Below, in pieces: positions 4,524 to 40,022 of a stretch of 64,000 nucleotides of DNA. The DNA lies in the NCBI GenBank assembly GCA_965199495.1, contig CBDASK010000003.1:800001-864000 (forward strand), given 5' to 3'. Below the pieces are notes generated by a model, which saw only the letters and a program-made list of their open reading frames with translations, had not been told where the DNA came from and searched no databases. This stretch comes from Abditibacterium sp. (lineage in GTDB: Bacteria; Armatimonadota; Abditibacteriia; Abditibacteriales; Abditibacteriaceae). Each line of letters starts with the position of its first letter. Within the stretch, counting starts at the first letter, position 1. Made by a program: the position numbers and the translations under genes.

Positions 4524-4820
4524 AGCCACAAAGGACACGAAGGAAACACAAAGGGCACAAAGAGATTAAAACATAGAAGAATTAGGAGTTACGCAGTTGA
4601 ACATTTTTCGTAGCTTGAAAGCTACGGCAGATGGCACTTCGTGCCGAACGTGCTTCGCACTTGGTGTTCATTTCAGTGCGCAGCACGTTCGGCGCAGCCA
4701 TCTGCCGTAGGCTTTAGCCTACGAATGCGTAAGTCCTAAGAACCATAATTTTGCTTTCATAAAATTAATTTCTTCTCATCTCTTTGTGTTCTTTGTGTGT
4801 TCTCCGCGTCCTTGGTGGCT
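4524..4820. repeat. Triple-nested palindromic element
   Basis: Outer AGCCAC..CACAAAG arms 4524-4565/4779-4820; middle TTAGGAGTTACGCA/TGCGTAAGTCCTAA 4582-4595/4726-4739; inner CTACGGCAGA-family arms ~4607-4661/4675-4725. Confidence 0.88.
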
Positions 4821-4827
4821 TGTCTCC

Positions 4828-6189
4828 ATGTTTCGATTTTTCAATTTTTTAGTTACCCCGTTCGTGCCTGCGCTCTGGCTTTATACGTTGCATCGCCGCT
4901 TCGTCCGAGGCAAATCGGCGGATTCTTATCGCGGACAATGGGGCCAAATCACGCCGCAGATGCGCGCATTTGGACGTTCAAGCGGCCCGAAAATTTGGCT
5001 GCACGCGGTTTCGGTTGGCGAAACGATGGCAGCGCGGCCCATCGCGCGCGCGCTCAAAGCGCGCCTGCCCGACGCGAAAATCGTGCTATCTTCGACGACC
5101 GATACCGGACACGAAGTCGCATTATCCGCCGTGAAAGCGGGCGAAGCGGATTTGGCGATTTATTTTCCGCTCGATTTGCCATTTGTTTTGCGGCGCGTTT
5201 TAAACGCGTTGCGGCCCGATGCGATTGGCTTCGTCGAAACCGAACTTTGGCCAAATTTGTTGGAATTGTCGCGAAGACGCGGCATCCAAACTTTTCAACT
5301 CAACGGACGTGTCAGCGACAATTTGCTCAAATCGGCGCCACGATTGGGGCCACTGTGGAAATGGATGAGCGGCAATGTCGGGCAGTTTCAAATGCGCGGC
5401 GAAACGGACGCGGAACGTTTGCGCTCGCTCGGCGTGGCTGATGAAAAGATCGTGGTCGTCGGCGATGTCAAATTGGAATCACCGCCGGTTTCGAGCGACG
5501 AATTGCGGCGCAAATGGCGCGGCGAATTGGGATTGCGCGATGAAGATAAGTTATTGATTTGCGGTTCGACGCACGCGGGCGAAGAAGCGATGATTTTGGA
5601 TGCGACGCGCGAAATCGAAGGTTTGAGTTTGGCGATTGCGCCGCGTCATATCGAACGCGCTGGCGAAGTCGCGGATTTGATCGAAACGCGTGGATTCAAA
5701 GTCGCGCGGCGTTCACGCGGCGAAAATCTGAGTGGGGCGGGGCTTGCGCCCTCTTCCAATCTTTCGCTTTCTGAAATCCGATTGGAAGAGGGCGCAAGCC
5801 CCGCCCAAGCTCACTCCGGCGACACGGTTTATTTGCTCGACACCGTCGGCGAATTAAGCGATTTTTATGCGGCGGGCGATATAACTTTCGTTGGCGGTAG
5901 CTTAATTCCACGCGGCGGACATAACGTTTTGGAACCGGTTCTGCGTGGCGCACCCGTTTTATTTGGGCCGCACATGATGAATTTCCGCGCCGCCGCGCAG
6001 TTGGTGAGAGAAAATGAGTTGGGCGAACAAGTCGAAAACGCCGCTGATTTAGCGCCAGCGATAAACCGCTGGTTCGATGCAGCCACGGCGCGCGGCGAGT
6101 TTGAAGCCCGCGTGGAAAAAGCGCTGTCATCTCATCGTGGCGCGGCGGCGCGCGCGGCGGATTTGGTCGCGCAAAGGTTGGATTTATAG
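4828..6189 (+). CDS. waaA: 3-deoxy-D-manno-octulosonic acid (Kdo) transferase
   Basis: IWLHAVSVGE, ETELWPN, GSTH, APRH and GGHNVLEP motifs. Confidence 0.95.
   Translation: MFRFFNFLVTPFVPALWLYTLHRRFVRGKSADSYRGQWGQITPQMRAFGRSSGPKIWLHAVSVGETMAARPIARALKARLPDAKIVLSSTTDTGHEVALSAVKAGEADLAIYFPLDLPFVLRRVLNALRPDAIGFVETELWPNLLELSRRRGIQTFQLNGRVSDNLLKSAPRLGPLWKWMSGNVGQFQMRGETDAERLRSLGVADEKIVVVGDVKLESPPVSSDELRRKWRGELGLRDEDKLLICGSTHAGEEAMILDATREIEGLSLAIAPRHIERAGEVADLIETRGFKVARRSRGENLSGAGLAPSSNLSLSEIRLEEGASPAQAHSGDTVYLLDTVGELSDFYAAGDITFVGGSLIPRGGHNVLEPVLRGAPVLFGPHMMNFRAAAQLVRENELGEQVENAADLAPAINRWFDAATARGEFEARVEKALSSHRGAAARAADLVAQRLDL
5735..5806. repeat. In-frame intragenic palindrome (CTCTTCCAAT family) within waaA
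   Basis: Perfect 27-bp arms 5735-5761/5780-5806; encodes GAGLAPSSNLSLSEIRLEEGASPA. Confidence 0.9.
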
Positions 6190-6356
6190 TGGGAGCATTG
6201 AGCGAGCGAATAAATTCGCGGCAACATAGGGCAAAGTCCGCCTGCGCGGACTGAGATTGGAACTCCGAAGAGTCCGCACGCAGTCCGCGCAGGCGGACTT
6301 TGCCCTATGTTGCCGCGAATTTATTCGCTCGCTCAATGCTCCCACTATAAATCCAA
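6178..6356. repeat. Palindromic element, GTCCGCGCAGGCGGAC family
   Basis: Perfect 76-bp arms 6178-6253/6281-6356, including the waaA stop codon. Confidence 0.93.
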
Positions 6357-6403
6357 CTCGAAAACCGGAAACTCGCGCGCATTTGCGCGTCCAAATTCAC
6401 GCC

Positions 6404-7459
6404 TTGAACCCGTTACTTTTGCCCGCCGAACCGCTTTACCGTCGCGCCATGCGGCGGCGGCGCGCGGCCAATTTGCAGTTGCGCGAACGCGCGAATGCGC
6501 CCTGCCCGATAATTTCGGTCGGCAACCTGACGACGGGCGGAACCGGCAAAACTCCGACGACGCAGTGGATCGCGCGCGCTCTGCAAAAACGCGGATTAAC
6601 TGTCGGCGTGGCTCTGCGCGGTTACGGCGGCAAAGTCGGCGACGCGGGCGCTTTGGTTTCCGATGGCGAGCAAACGTTTTTGGGGCCGCAAATCGTCGGC
6701 GACGAGGCGGTTTTGCACGCGCGCAACTTGCCGGGCGCGATTGTAGTTGTTGCCAAAGACCGCCATCGTGCCGTCGAGTTGGCCATACAAAATGGCGCGC
6801 AAATCGTGATTTTGGACGACGGTTTTCAATTTTGGAGTTTGCCGCGCGCCTTCGATTTGGTTTTGCTGGACGCCAAACGCCCGTGGGGCAACGGGCATTT
6901 GCTTCCAGTCGGGCGTTTGCGCGAAGAAAAAACCGAATTGGGAAGGGCCGATGCCGTGTTATTGACGCGCGTCGAACGACCCTCGTTGGAAGAATTGGCG
7001 CGCACCCACGCGCAAGTCCGCGAACTGACCGATGCGCCGATTTTCGAGTCGTGGCACAAACCCAAGGATTTACGCGTTGAGACAACGGGCGAGATTTTGC
7101 CGCTTTCGGCGCTCAAAAACGGGCGCGTCAAAGCGTTCGCGGGCTTGGCCGACAACACGCAATTTTATCGGATGTTGCGCTCGCTGGGCGTCTCGTTCAT
7201 CAATACTTTGCTACGCGAGCGCGGCGATCATCACGCGTGGAAAAAGCGCGATTTCAATTGGACGGTGCCCGATACGACCGTGATGGGCGCCAACGTCGAA
7301 CGCGCGTTTGGCGCGACGGTCACGACCGAAAAAGATGCCGTAAAAGTGGATCCAGATTGGTTTTCGACGCCGCTGTGGAGTTTGCGCATCGCGCTCGAAG
7401 TGCGCGACGATGCGAACGAATTAGAAAATTTGATCTGGAAATCGCTGGAGAAAAATTAG
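6404..7459 (+). CDS. lpxK: Tetraacyldisaccharide 4'-kinase
   Basis: SVGNLTTGGTGKTP, LDDGFQ, LLPVGRLRE and TTEKDAVK motifs; start uncertain (TTG 6404 chosen because the ORF-track start lies inside the palindrome). Confidence 0.92.
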   Translation: MNPLLLPAEPLYRRAMRRRRAANLQLRERANAPCPIISVGNLTTGGTGKTPTTQWIARALQKRGLTVGVALRGYGGKVGDAGALVSDGEQTFLGPQIVGDEAVLHARNLPGAIVVVAKDRHRAVELAIQNGAQIVILDDGFQFWSLPRAFDLVLLDAKRPWGNGHLLPVGRLREEKTELGRADAVLLTRVERPSLEELARTHAQVRELTDAPIFESWHKPKDLRVETTGEILPLSALKNGRVKAFAGLADNTQFYRMLRSLGVSFINTLLRERGDHHAWKKRDFNWTVPDTTVMGANVERAFGATVTTEKDAVKVDPDWFSTPLWSLRIALEVRDDANELENLIWKSLEKN

Positions 7460-7496
7460 CCACAGCGAGAATTGAAGAATAAATTACTCTTTAGGC

Positions 7497-7643
7497 CCAC
7501 GCCTGTCATTCTGAGCGAAGAGAGGCACGAATGTAGTCGAAGAATCCACCGGTTGCGACTGAAGCTAACTTTCGTCGGTAATTTTACTTCATAGATTCTT
7601 CGACTTCGTTCGTGCCTCTCTGCGCTCAGAATGACAGGCGTGG
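7497..7643. repeat. Palindromic element, TGTCATTCTGAG family
   Basis: ~50-bp imperfect arms 7497-7546/7594-7643; sister copy at 15765. Confidence 0.88.
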
Positions 7644-7703
7644 CCATTGAGTTATTCCTATTCTGCGTTTCTGCACGAAAATAAAGTATTGAATAAAAAA
7701 ATT

Positions 7704-8603
7704 ATGAATCGTAATTTAATTGAGACTGCCGCGATGGGCGCGGTCGGGCGCGTTTTCGAGACGCTTTCGTTTGATGCGTGCCGCTACGCGGGGGCATGGC
7801 TGGGATTGGGCATTTATGCGGCGCTGGGCAAAAGGCGCCCGATTTCGATCAATAATGTTCGTCTGGCGCTGGGCGTTTCTCCGGCGCGCGCCAATCAAAT
7901 TGTGCGGCGAGCGGTGATGAATTTCGGCATGACCTACGCCGAGTTCATGCACCTGCGCGTGGCCACGCGCGAAGAAGTGCGCGCCTATTCGTGGATCGAG
8001 GGTTTGGAACACGTCGAAAGCGCGCGCGCGGCGGGCAAAGGCGCGATTTTGCTGACGGCACATCTGGGCAACTGGGAAGTTATGGGCGCGCGCGCGGCGC
8101 AGGAGTTTCCGCTCACGGTCGTCGCGCGCCCGGCGGGCAACGCGGGCGTGCAAAGTTACATTGACGCCGGGCGCGCGGCGAGTGGAATCGGCGTGATTTC
8201 CAAATACGACAACGGGCGCGCTCCATTGCGGGTTTTGAAAAATAACGAAACGCTGGGCATTTTGCCCGACCAACACGCCGGAAGCGAGGGCGAATTGCTG
8301 CCGATGTTCGGCCAACCAACGCGCGTCTGGAGCGCGATTGCAAGGTTGGCGATGATGTCGGGCGCGCGCGTCGTGCCCGCGTTTGGCGTGCGACAAACGC
8401 CGTTTTTGGCCGACGGACGTATCGTCGCCAAAGTCAGTCCGAGTTGGAACGTTCCAAAATCAAACGATAAAAACGCCGCGATTCATGCGGGCACGCGCCG
8501 CACGGTGGCCGAATTAGAACGCATTATCGCCGCGCATCCCGACCAATGGCTGTGGCTTCATCGGCGCTGGCGCGAAGCCGATGGCGCGGTTTTTCCCGAT
8601 TGA
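7704..8603 (+). CDS. lpxL: Lipid A late acyltransferase (LpxL/HtrB family)
   Basis: TAHLGNWE, LPDQ and PDQWLWLHRRW motifs. Confidence 0.88.
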   Translation: MNRNLIETAAMGAVGRVFETLSFDACRYAGAWLGLGIYAALGKRRPISINNVRLALGVSPARANQIVRRAVMNFGMTYAEFMHLRVATREEVRAYSWIEGLEHVESARAAGKGAILLTAHLGNWEVMGARAAQEFPLTVVARPAGNAGVQSYIDAGRAASGIGVISKYDNGRAPLRVLKNNETLGILPDQHAGSEGELLPMFGQPTRVWSAIARLAMMSGARVVPAFGVRQTPFLADGRIVAKVSPSWNVPKSNDKNAAIHAGTRRTVAELERIIAAHPDQWLWLHRRWREADGAVFPD

Positions 8604-8629
8604 TTCTAATGATGGGATTCGAGGATCAA

Positions 8630-8846
8630 GCGGTCGTCTTGAAAAATTACGCGATAGACCTCGCCTGTCATTTCGAGTGAGGCACGAACCGAGAAATCTT
8701 GCGGCCCCGCGCCAGCGGATATAACGCGCTCGTTTCAACACCAAAAATTTCTGACTTGCGTTGCCGCGCGGGCGAAAGATTTCTCGGTTCGTGCCTCACT
8801 CGAAATGACAGGCGAGGTCTATCGCGTAATTTTTCAAGACGACCGC
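8630..8846. repeat. Palindromic element, TGTCATTTCGAG family, with extended arms
   Basis: Perfect 71-bp arms 8630-8700/8776-8846 between convergent genes. Confidence 0.93.
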
Positions 8847-8852
8847 GATCGT

Positions 8853-9500
8853 CTATTCGCTCGCCACGCGCGGCAACAAGTCGGCAACGGCAAATTCGAC
8901 TTCGGGTTGCCACAACGTCGCGGCGTGGCTGCTTTCGGGCACGATGAGGCGCACGCTGTAACCCCAGCCAAACGGCATCGCCGAATCGCGTTGCGTGCCG
9001 CGATGAATTTCGAGTTGGCGCTCTTCCACGTTCAATATCCAATACTCCGTGATTCCGGCGCGCGCATAAGCCGAGGCTTTGGCGCGGCGGTCAAAGGAAA
9101 GAGTCGCGTCCGAAACTTCCAATGCGAGCAAAACATCGTCTGGCGCCGGATGATTTTGGTAATCGTCGTCGGTGCCGCGCGCCAAAACCAAATCGGGTTC
9201 GGGTTCGGAAGTTTCGTTCAACCGAATCGGAAGCTGAATTCGGATGGCAACCTGGCCACCAAAAGCTGTGAAGAATGCGAGACTGGTTTTGCTAACCGCC
9301 ATCGCGTGCGGGCCGAGCATTGCTGCCATTTTGTCGTAAATTACTCCTTCAATTAATTCGACGCGGCGCCCTTCAAAGGCTCCGGCTTCGGTCAAGAGTT
9401 GATACTCGTGCCACGTTAACGCATGAGCGCGTGGCTCCTCGATTTGCGGCGAGAGCGCGCCCGCTTGAATCGCGATTTGTGGGCGTTCCAATGTTTGCAT
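8853..9500 (-). CDS. Uma2 (DUF820) family endonuclease
   Basis: RVELIEG, SEPEPDL, LEVSD and KASAYARAGITEYWILN motifs. Confidence 0.92.
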   Translation of the reverse strand: MQTLERPQIAIQAGALSPQIEEPRAHALTWHEYQLLTEAGAFEGRRVELIEGVIYDKMAAMLGPHAMAVSKTSLAFFTAFGGQVAIRIQLPIRLNETSEPEPDLVLARGTDDDYQNHPAPDDVLLALEVSDATLSFDRRAKASAYARAGITEYWILNVEERQLEIHRGTQRDSAMPFGWGYSVRLIVPESSHAATLWQPEVEFAVADLLPRVASE

Positions 9501-9501
9501 T

Positions 9502-10368
9502 TTACTTCTCCTCCTCGAACGGAATCGGGCGCACCGTGACTTTCTGGCCGTCTTCGCCTTCGACGTGCAGTTCCGTTCCCGGCGCGTTCCACTCGTTGCG
9601 CACGTAGGCCAGACCGATGGCGCCAAAGCGCGGACTTTCCAGGCAACTCGTCAAATATCCGGCGGGTTTGTCGCCGAACATTAATTTTTGGCGCGAAGGA
9701 CATTTGCATTCCAACTCCACGCCGACCAACTTTTGCTTGACTTTTTTATAAGTGTCCAAACGCGCGATAATTTCCTGGCCGTTATAGCAACCTTTGTTCA
9801 TCGAAACGGCGAAATCCAGACCGGCTTCCCACGGGTTGAAATCCTCGACGAGTTCGGCGCCCGCGACCGGAATGCCGTCTTCGACGCGCAAAACATTGAA
9901 GGTTTCGGTATCGCAATCGAGGGCGCCGTCGGACGGATCGAACGACAAAAAGCCGCCGCCGGGCAAACGTTTGGTTGGCCAGCGCGGGCCGACGACTTCG
10001 ATGGCGCGCGGGCCGAATAAGCCCCATAGCTTGTCGTCACCAGCCACGTCGTCAATGGTGACGACCTGGCGAAACAAAACGTAGCGCAACGCGTGATTTT
10101 TGAAGGATTGTTTGCGATTGGGCGACGTAATCACCCAGAAATCCGACGAGTGGCGCCGCAAAATCGTGAGCCAATCCAAAACGCGCGCCTGAGAAGTCAC
10201 CAGAGCGGCCTCGCGAACTTCGCCGGGGCGCATCGAATTTACGTCTTGCGTGGTCAGATGATGCAACAAATTCGCGGCATCTTTGCCCCACACGCGGTAG
10301 CGGCCAAAATGACTCATATCGCGCCGCACCAAACCGTGGCGGGCCGCTTCGTAGACTTCTAAATCCAT
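9502..10368 (-). CDS. ygfZ: Folate-binding GcvT/YgfZ family protein
   Basis: KGCYNGQE signature; LHHLTTQD. Confidence 0.85.
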   Translation of the reverse strand: MDLEVYEAARHGLVRRDMSHFGRYRVWGKDAANLLHHLTTQDVNSMRPGEVREAALVTSQARVLDWLTILRRHSSDFWVITSPNRKQSFKNHALRYVLFRQVVTIDDVAGDDKLWGLFGPRAIEVVGPRWPTKRLPGGGFLSFDPSDGALDCDTETFNVLRVEDGIPVAGAELVEDFNPWEAGLDFAVSMNKGCYNGQEIIARLDTYKKVKQKLVGVELECKCPSRQKLMFGDKPAGYLTSCLESPRFGAIGLAYVRNEWNAPGTELHVEGEDGQKVTVRPIPFEEEK

Positions 10369-10370
10369 AA

Positions 10371-12020
10371 TTAAAAAGGGCGCACCAAAGGCGCCAGAGT
10401 CGCCGACATCAACAACGTTTGCAAAGCCTGCAAACAAAGCAACGGCGCCCAATCGCGCCAGCGCAACTCATCGTGAAACGCAGCGAGTGCGCAGAGCGGC
10501 GCGAGCGAAAACAGCCACAATCGCTCGGCCTCGCCGCGCACGTTTCCACTAAGGCACAGCAACAATAAAACAGCTAAAGTCGCGACTCCCAGACAAAATC
10601 CGCCCGCGCTAAACCTTGCGCGCGTCGCGTTTTCTTTATAAAGTTTGACGCCTCGCGCCAAAAGCGCAACCACGGGCCAGCCGATAAAGAGCGCCCAAAC
10701 CCCTAAATTGAGCCAGACCCACGGCCAGTAACCGCGCGTTTCGAGCGTCGCGAAACGGTGCGCGCGGCCCGCGTTCAGCGCGATTTCGAGTGGATTAAAA
10801 CTTCCCCACATCGCCAAAATCGCCCACATTAAAACGAACGCGCCAACCGATAAAATCAACGCGCGCGCGCCACCGCGCGGGCGATAAATTAATATCGCGA
10901 GGATTAAAATCGCGCCAACGGCAAACGCGCCGATGGAAAGAAACGTGGTCAAAGCGAGCGCGATTCCACTGGCAATCCACCAGAAATCGGCAGATTTAGA
11001 CGGAGCGGGGCTGGCGCCCTCTTCCAATCGGGTTTCAGAAAGCGAGAGATTGGAAGAGAACACCAGCCCCGCCGCCTCAGATTTCATGCGATTCCAACCC
11101 AGCGCCGCGAAATACAAAGTCCACGCCGCGCCGCATGCGACCAGCGCATCAAGCGTGAAGGCGAACAGATTGGTTGTCGGCGCCAAAACCCACAGCGCCG
11201 CCGCGATGAGACCGCACTTTTCGGCGTTTTCGCCGCCGCCCAACGCGCCCAATCCGTAAACCGCCGGGAGCGATGCCACCAGCGAAAGTCCGAGTAGAAT
11301 CGCGCATAAAAGCGCGGCGCCAATCGCCGAATCGGGCAACGGCGGCGGGTCGGGCACGCCCAATCGTTGCCTCGTTGGCGTGGCGCGCGATTGTTGCGCG
11401 ACCTTGACTAATTCGGCGGATGTCATTCCGGTCACGGTTTGCGCCAACGATGTCAAGCCGCTTTGCAAAGCGGGCGAGCTTTCGTAGATTACGCGCACGC
11501 CATAAAACCACAAAACCGCGCCCGGCGGATGCGTGGCGACGTGCGCCTGAAGCCGCGATTGCGGATGCTGCGCCGTTTGCGCGTAATTGTGCGCGTAAGC
11601 CCGCGCGTCGTCGAAGGTGTAGGCGGCGCCGAAATATTCGGTGGAGAGATCGCTCCACAGCGCGGCGATAATGTTGGCGCGGCCTTCCAGCATCGGCGCG
11701 CCCACGCTATTTTTCAGTTTGCCCGGCCCCAGCATCGCCCAAGGCCACAGCATACCGAAAATCGCCAGACAAACCAGCGCCGTGACGGTCGAGTTGGTTT
11801 GTTCCTTGCGACTTTTGGCGCGCTTGAAGCGGTCGTAAACCGACAACGCCGCCGCGCCGCCAAAGACGACGGGAACACTGATTGGCAACAACCACGCGCC
11901 CGTTGGCCACGCCGCATGGGGCGTGAGCGCCCAATTGCCCGCGCCCAATGGCGCGCGCCAGACGAACAACCACAGCGCCGTCAAAGCGACGGCAACAAAA
12001 GCGAAAAGGACGCGAATCAT
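10371..12020 (-). CDS. Polytopic membrane protein, possibly a GT-C-fold glycosyltransferase
   Basis: Many TM segments; HVATHPPG and GEAERLWLF motifs. Confidence 0.6.
   Translation of the reverse strand: MIRVLFAFVAVALTALWLFVWRAPLGAGNWALTPHAAWPTGAWLLPISVPVVFGGAAALSVYDRFKRAKSRKEQTNSTVTALVCLAIFGMLWPWAMLGPGKLKNSVGAPMLEGRANIIAALWSDLSTEYFGAAYTFDDARAYAHNYAQTAQHPQSRLQAHVATHPPGAVLWFYGVRVIYESSPALQSGLTSLAQTVTGMTSAELVKVAQQSRATPTRQRLGVPDPPPLPDSAIGAALLCAILLGLSLVASLPAVYGLGALGGGENAEKCGLIAAALWVLAPTTNLFAFTLDALVACGAAWTLYFAALGWNRMKSEAAGLVFSSNLSLSETRLEEGASPAPSKSADFWWIASGIALALTTFLSIGAFAVGAILILAILIYRPRGGARALILSVGAFVLMWAILAMWGSFNPLEIALNAGRAHRFATLETRGYWPWVWLNLGVWALFIGWPVVALLARGVKLYKENATRARFSAGGFCLGVATLAVLLLLCLSGNVRGEAERLWLFSLAPLCALAAFHDELRWRDWAPLLCLQALQTLLMSATLAPLVRPF
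11005..11072. repeat. In-frame intragenic palindrome (CTCTTCCAAT family)
   Basis: Arms 11005-11029/11048-11072; encodes AGLVFSSNLSLSETRLEEGASPA on the minus strand. Confidence 0.88.
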
Positions 12021-18769: not shown

Positions 18770-18936
18770 TAGACCTCTTGCATAAGTCAATGGACATTTG
18801 AAGTCTGCGGGGCTGACGCCCTCTTCCAATCGGCAATCTTGCCAAGAACTTCGCCGATTGGAAGAGGGCGTCAGCCCCGCAGCACAAAAGATACAGAGCA
18901 ATGGCACGCTCAAAACTGACTTATGCAAGAGGTCTA
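18770..18936. repeat. Nested element: TAGACCTCTTGCA terminal repeats enclosing a CTCTTCCAAT palindrome
   Basis: Perfect 20-bp outer arms 18770-18789/18917-18936; 30-bp inner arms 18805-18834/18853-18882. Confidence 0.9.
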
Positions 18937-39936: not shown

Positions 39937-40022
39937 AAAAGGGGCGGGTGCTCTGCGCCCTCTTCCAAACTTTGGTTACTTAAAAACCGTTTGGAAAAGG
40001 GCGCAGAACACCCGCCCCTTTT
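39937..40022. repeat. Palindrome related to the CTCTTCCAA family
   Basis: 34-bp arms 39937-39970/39989-40022 between convergent genes. Confidence 0.85.

Follow-up and report, generated by a model that had tools for sequence, protein, structure and literature searches.

The 64,000-nucleotide window analysed here (positions 800,001 to 864,000 of the forward strand of contig CBDASK010000003.1, assembly GCA_965199495.1, from Abditibacterium sp.) raises the question of what a palindromic DNA element is that lies in frame within the genes of two unrelated proteins, and how it is tolerated there. An earlier note on this DNA had reported hairpins of ~70 bp inside waaA and inside a membrane-protein gene, read in the same frame, and both were verified. 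The first core occupies 5737..5804 (+ strand) of waaA, the gene of a Kdo transferase (4786..6189, + strand; 467 aa as called; PF04413 E 9.5e-51), and is composed of a 25-bp arm, an 18-bp spacer and an inverted 25-bp arm; its sister copy occupies 11005..11072 (- strand) of the gene for a polytopic membrane protein (10371..12020, - strand; 549 aa). In frame, both hairpins give the peptide AGL..SSNLSLSE.RLEEGASPA. The element is very likely a REPIN, a doublet whose units are repetitive extragenic palindromic (REP) sequences, copied by a REP-associated tyrosine transposase (RAYT), with the in-frame copies translated as ~24 extra residues. Folded as single-stranded DNA (ssDNA), the waaA copy reaches -43.5 kcal/mol (z -11.6) and the membrane-protein copy -27.7 kcal/mol (z -5.9); 0/200 shuffles fold as well. 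The spacers of the two copies are mutual closest matches (alignment score 14; the next best among 101 is 5), and this near identity suggests local copying of one from the other, or a common nearby source.

The two copies belong to a dispersed family. A profile of the 25-bp arm detects 221 arms in the whole genome, arranged as 102 head-to-head doublets of 59-84 bp and 17 single arms, and gives no match in the reversed genome used as a control. According to gene calls made with an own codon model (3,594 genes), 10/119 loci are mid-gene and in frame while the remaining 109/119 lie outside mid-gene positions; more than 80% of the genome is coding yet 8% of copies are in genes, which indicates strong depletion from genes. 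The in-frame hosts are waaA, the membrane protein, a bioF-like gene, an RsmB-like protein, a ModF-like ABC ATPase, a short-chain dehydrogenase/reductase (SDR), a YYY-domain membrane protein, a PP2C-domain protein and two unnamed proteins. The earlier note is supported in that the palindrome is scattered over the genome, seems to be mobile, and is inserted in frame into loops of proteins unrelated to each other. Beyond this genome the arm pattern is present in 18/26 other Abditibacteriaceae genomes and in 1/1 genome of the order, and in 0/33 more distant genomes; the arm count varies from 0 to ~200 within one genus. Each arm holds a small stem of 4 bp with a 4-nt loop that displays compensatory changes (378 arms give 55 compensatory cells where shuffles average 7.9, and 47 of the 55 stem from one inherited variant); folding of single arms is weak, with z of -0.3 to -1.7 in three arms and a fourth unfolded. 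The base directly before the core is a near-invariant G, with A ahead of it in about half of the arms.

Further features of the arms and their arrangement were seen in the source genome (G000) and its relatives. An outer repeat starting TATAG flanks ~22/204 arms, among other places at G000:C3:272263, 1285523, 2333070 and 2581143, and lengthens some inserts (~60 residues in L103). The source genome has head-to-head pairs only; in G009, tail-to-tail doublets make up 14/21 scored pairs, and the tail-to-tail copies in genes (L191, L239, L245) use the same reading frames. Many intergenic copies in G011 and G004 have two flanks that map to different places in the source genome, and element copies may mark synteny breaks. 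One large protein's loop (homologue of G000 C3:1949825-1953199) carries family copies at L172:1392-1529 in G006, where the insert is doubled, and at L243:1479-1504 in G009; occupied in both genomes, this loop is a possible hot spot.

The partner enzyme was sought by surveying 27 family genomes for Pfam Y1_Tnp; a Y1_Tnp gene lies between two full elements once in G005 and once in G009. The two partner proteins tested both score above the cut-off of NF047646 (REP-associated tyrosine transposase), the HUH motif and a catalytic-type Tyr are invariant in 6/6 partner RAYTs, and the best PDB match is E. coli TnpA-REP (4er8). The partner RAYT is present in 6/27 family genomes, all six of which carry the element; arms flank the cognate RAYT at five of these six loci by profile and at the sixth, a partial match at a contig end, by eye, as well as at metagenome locus L326, and they occur at 0/79 more distant RAYT loci and 0/36 other Y1_Tnp loci. 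Records with a partner RAYT gene bear the label Abditibacteriaceae or Armatimonadota. The arms around the RAYT of G005 show G005's own form of the arm, in which the small stem has undergone a compensatory change, and GGAG is seen beside several RAYT-flanking arms. The five genomes with flank matches each have different genes next to the partner RAYT, which suggests that the RAYT cassette itself moves; in G009 the RAYT with its flanking arms (L073:1503-2147) lies between the mod and the res gene of a type III system.

Inverted arms that are long and nearly perfect, with a variable spacer between them, would also be expected of a classical MITE (miniature inverted-repeat transposable element), in which case the arms would be terminal inverted repeats, a DDE insertion sequence (IS) transposase would move them and the RAYT link would be incidental; the weak tetranucleotide tag and the absence of the RAYT from the source genome fit this as well. 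Judged on transposase loci, flanks and doublet orientation, a MITE is nevertheless considered highly unlikely, as 7/7 loci of one RAYT clade are flanked by arms (one by eye) against 0/115 control loci, the flanks are mirrored rather than directly duplicated, and both head-to-head and tail-to-tail doublets exist. Comparisons of empty and filled sites, made between highly diverged sequences, show no consistent direct repeat.

The source genome's own RAYTs were considered as partners and rejected, each having its own repeat; the nearest to the cognate protein is only 25% identical (E 0.001). Three other Y1_Tnp genes of this genome, at G000:C3:21595-22189 (L003), 1873449-1874485 (L008) and 3721255-3722005 (L004), have flanking repeats of their own with 4, 24 and 31 matches genome-wide, respectively; the L008 repeat carries a GTAG tag and has a stem like the outer stem of the waaA-type element. 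With its RAYT gone, the family is probably an orphan in the source genome.

Insertion into pre-existing genes is indicated by homologues. Orthologs carrying the peptide in the absence of the palindrome had been named as evidence against an insertion; the peptide occurs in 0/29 WaaA homologous loci (from 40 relatives). The alignment of WaaA orthologs that had been proposed did recover empty sites: the two nearest homologues (88% and 79% identical) lack 81 bp, or 27 codons, at the insert site, and the net gain in waaA is 27 codons. The site had been described as a short loop in typical WaaA, which holds for most homologues; however, the loop is variable in length, and five homologues have 10-20 extra residues. 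In G020 (L015) this WaaA loop carries an unrelated insert of ~40 aa with no match to the arm. The membrane-protein insert falls between two hydrophobic segments, in a loop that varies in length and is a net 11 residues shorter in the sister genome G011; in G004 the same loop holds an apparent decayed family copy (21/25 bases by eye; profile E 0.17). For 9/10 in-frame copies the homologues are empty or bear a decayed trace only; the tenth copy, in a C-terminal tail, is common to G011. Contigs from four sequencing runs contain no empty-site joint at either window insert; run X1, which probably comes from the source sample, bridges both inserts, the waaA one by a contig that shows no differences.

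The evidence for tolerance of the inserts comes from structure prediction and from substitution patterns. The predicted WaaA fold has a mean predicted local distance difference test (pLDDT) score of 89.5, and insert residues 317-343, which fall below 50, form a loop between strands 305-308 and 347-350; mapping of the insert on a predicted structure, as suggested in the earlier note, placed it in a low-confidence loop between two strands. As low pLDDT is expected for an unaligned insert, this shows placement rather than disorder. WaaA matches PDB entries 2xci and 4bfc, its conserved motifs are invariant, and the frames are open on both sides of the insert. The ratio of nonsynonymous to synonymous substitution rates (dN/dS) against G011 is 0.11-0.21 in 6/6 genes tested (0.11 for waaA, 0.20 for the membrane protein); waaA with its insert remains under purifying selection, with 9 amino-acid against 45 synonymous changes on the source-genome branch. 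Inserts in the RsmB-like, ModF-like and PP2C-tail hosts are common to G011, at a synonymous divergence (dS) of 0.6 where measured, and G004 ModF apparently holds a decayed trace of the element. Sites are kept in G011 for 3/4 shared genes against 1/4 scorable intergenic copies, with 16/20 intergenic copies unscorable.

Translation through the in-frame copies is the reading suggested by the sequences. Were the copies instead not translated through, either the genes would be crippled or the hairpin removed or cleaved in RNA; a hairpin of -70 kcal/mol is predicted in the waaA mRNA, and the genome contains a distant paralogue resembling WaaA, both of which would suit such a view. The open frames, the retained invariant motifs, the dN/dS values in all six genes and the persistence of inserts in frame in two species all argue the other way, and the frame bias described below is hard to account for absent translation; this explanation is therefore considered very unlikely. 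The paralogue, a distant second PF04413 gene at L322:1011-2522 (G000:C3 about 2483010-2484520), has neighbours that are presumably heptosyltransferase-like. It also bears on the claim that the palindrome is tolerated in an essential gene: tolerance is supported by the waaA motifs and by purifying selection, but essentiality is unproven because of this paralogue. Under the translated-REPIN reading most gene insertions would be purged, those retained would be of a net length divisible by three and lie in loops already length-variable, and fixed insertions would drift as near-neutral linkers.

The choice of reading frame was assessed in 24 independent insertions from six genomes, leaving out two copies shared with the source genome, one tandem twin, single arms and one chance match; expected counts were derived from the frames that are open in each element itself. 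LEEGxSPA is the reading of the reverse arm in 21/24 events (10.9 expected, P 4e-6) and AGLxPSSN that of the forward arm in 19/24 (11.1 expected, P 4e-4); where length allows, the f0/r1 pair is used in 17/17 (8.3 expected). The LEEGxSPA frame is used in 12/13 events outside G000 and G011 (P 0.002), and the null barely shifts when flanks are included. Three exceptional events (f1/r0, f0/r0 and f0/r2) show that the filter is not absolute. Relatives contribute in-frame copies at 7/61 scored in G006, 5/21 in G011, 5/25 in G009, 2/16 in G004 and 1/13 in G016; these counts are samples of copies, exclude 17 near locus edges, and rely on the source genome's codon model and proteome. G003 stands outside the frame sample (133 arms by the arm pattern, 0 by one gapped pattern), and the G011 bioF copy was left out as the assembly breaks at the site. 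The in-frame candidate L250 was discarded because native sequence matches there by chance, and L073 and L258 were dropped as in-gene copies, being upstream of starts.

Selection at the peptide level is the preferred explanation of this bias and is thought fairly probable: the retained frame would give small and acidic residues (AGLxPSSN...LEEGxSPA) rather than basic or aromatic alternatives, and the waaA copy has a net charge of -2 in the reading used against +4 and +5 in the others. It is possible, though doubtful, that the bias arises at the level of DNA or codons, through a skewed insertion phase or rare Arg codons, with the peptide itself unselected. RAYTs are described, in the literature as far as compared, as cutting at dinucleotides such as CT or CA, and a similar 9-base stretch containing CT precedes the element in both window copies; the avoided frames, moreover, often hold AGG or AGA (0.6 and 1.1 per 1000). 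A skewed insertion phase, however, sits poorly with an apparent junction-to-core distance that ranges from a few bases to ~20 codons, with the lack of a conserved base pattern outside the core, and with three tail-to-tail copies that use the same two frames in spite of their reversed arm order. A literature search at listing level found no published report on frame preference.

Besides the insertion phase and these rare codons, several points weigh against the element being a RAYT-copied, translated REPIN. The cognate RAYT is missing from the source genome (3 contigs, 95% complete) and is found in only 6/19 element-bearing family genomes, and RAYT-driven movement is putative. GGAG stands directly 5' of the core in only 17/204 arms and there appears to be no fixed GTAG/GGAG tag. 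The nearest empty sites are only ~85% identical, too little to place the exact ends and the target site. The branch dN/dS mixes time before and after insertion. Arm mismatches average 1.6 in in-frame copies and 1.4 in other copies (P 0.41), and this equality gives no sign of selection weakening the predicted waaA RNA hairpin.

The arms also carry a record of copying. Differences between the two arms average 1.4 bases within a copy against 3.4 between copies, rare-variant sites are mirrored on both arms in 13/95 cases (1.65 expected), and flanks are mirrored over at least 3 bp in 46/102 doublets, up to 34 bp, against 4% for random pairs; some long mirrored flanks belong to an outer repeat that several copies have in common, and others occur at a single copy. 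It is hypothesized that the RAYT recognises the small stem-loop of each arm on ssDNA and copies the doublet to new sites, and that hairpin-templated copying or repair would turn the two arms, and in many cases the flanks as well, into mirror images. The most far-reaching variant, in which the family has partly moved out of the extragenic niche, the RAYT moves as a cassette, copying replaces one arm and its flank by the mirrored form of the other, and only an acidic, disorder-prone reading is admitted, is put forward tentatively as a less than even prospect.

The non-coding copies could point to another role, in which the family would be kept for a host function in RNA (termination or the stability of mRNA) and the copies in genes would arise as by-products. 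Gaps between convergent genes hold an excess of non-coding copies (36/109 against 318/2399 gaps), and gaps between divergent genes hold few (8/109 against 487/2399 gaps); the same bias is described for REPs generally in the portion of PMC3733652 compared, it follows from promoter avoidance, and arm counts of 0 to ~200 within one genus speak against a kept function. This role, compatible with the REPIN reading, is considered unlikely. Two intergenic relatives had been listed in the window: 18807..18880, within the reported 18805-18882, is a typical family member flanked by convergent genes in the gene calls made here, whereas 39937..40022, also intergenic and with convergent genes on either side, is divergent, is missed by the arm profile, and has a pattern of its own that matches one copy.

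The waaA gene belongs to a cluster lpxB-msbA-waaA-lpxK-lpxL-like, in which waaA and lpxK (PF02606) are assigned by Pfam and lpxB, msbA and lpxL are presumed from familiar motifs; the waaA product matches the PRK05749 models of NCBIfam below cut-off. The membrane protein has no match in Pfam and NCBIfam searches; its Atlas neighbours are mostly unnamed, with PF13231 on 59% of the members of one cluster, and a GT-C (PMT_2-like) glycosyltransferase is a possible identity, as a lead only. Depth spikes and loose ends at 6205-6251 (waaA-lpxK), 7504-7636 (lpxK-lpxL) and 8666-8910 (after lpxL) mark additional repeat families. An Rfam search of window positions 4700-41000 gave no match, nor did plasmid and phage searches.

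Among known systems the closest parallels, in the text available from each source, are the REPIN-RAYT systems of Pseudomonas (Bertels & Rainey 2011, PMC3116915) and the group 3 REPtrons (PMC8266576), compared together with bioRxiv 10.1101/119743 and 10.1101/2021.07.10.451892: the traits in common are arms of ~25 bp that hold a short stem-loop, doublets in inverted orientation whose spacer varies, ~100 mainly extragenic copies, a RAYT gene flanked by the repeat (here in relatives), and a RAYT that some genomes have lost. The arm is akin to the GI/GII REP 16-mers of P. fluorescens (PMC3116915 Table 1). Unlike those systems as there described, the Abditibacteriaceae element seems to lack a fixed GTAG tag, 8-24% of its scored copies lie in genes against 14/1,067 16-mers in SBW25, and RAYT neighbours vary, whereas RAYTs elsewhere are described as staying at one site. 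The earlier note had likened the element to Rickettsia palindromic elements (RPE), and the outcome, in-frame peptide loops, is alike: the review descriptions (PMC10969869, PMC3184786) give a palindrome in frame in unrelated genes with a conserved, fold-compatible peptide. The identity differs; RPE are ~105-150 bp, nearly half intragenic and from an intracellular alphaproteobacterium, while the present element is ~70 bp, 10/119 intragenic and tied to a RAYT. It is likely a REPIN-RAYT family of Abditibacteriaceae with a translated minority and not a Rickettsia RPE.

The note had also considered the phenomenon unreported in this lineage; no report for the lineage was found in the literature, but in-frame REP dimers are known outside Rickettsia. 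Di Nocera 2013 (PMC3733652), as far as its text was compared, describes ~70 intragenic REPs in Opitutus terrae with recurring peptides, including one in LpxK, a lipid A gene; these GTAG REPs are likewise in-frame mid-gene dimers of 20-30 residues in unrelated and housekeeping proteins, and the listed peptides recur in the same frames, as in Abditibacteriaceae. They differ in sequence family and phylum, and 'Armatimon' appears nowhere in the four supplements of PMC3733652; the frame-bias test, orthologue comparison and persistence given here have no counterpart in the part of that paper compared. Translated palindromes in housekeeping genes are therefore an already published phenomenon; new here are the family and lineage, the frame filter, inserts that sister species have in common, and a mirroring of arms and flanks that is particular to single copies.

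The finding extends REPIN-RAYT systems to Abditibacteriaceae and supplies the partner transposase for biochemical testing, and the mirrored flanks provide a clue to REPIN copying, which is itself still unsettled. Each arm of this short element could give any of three peptides, and the 24 independent insertions mostly use one; the rules for tolerated loop insertions thereby become testable in a single enzyme, WaaA. If the most far-reaching variant were true, the same loops would be reoccupied over time, a natural experiment on which peptide loops are acceptable.

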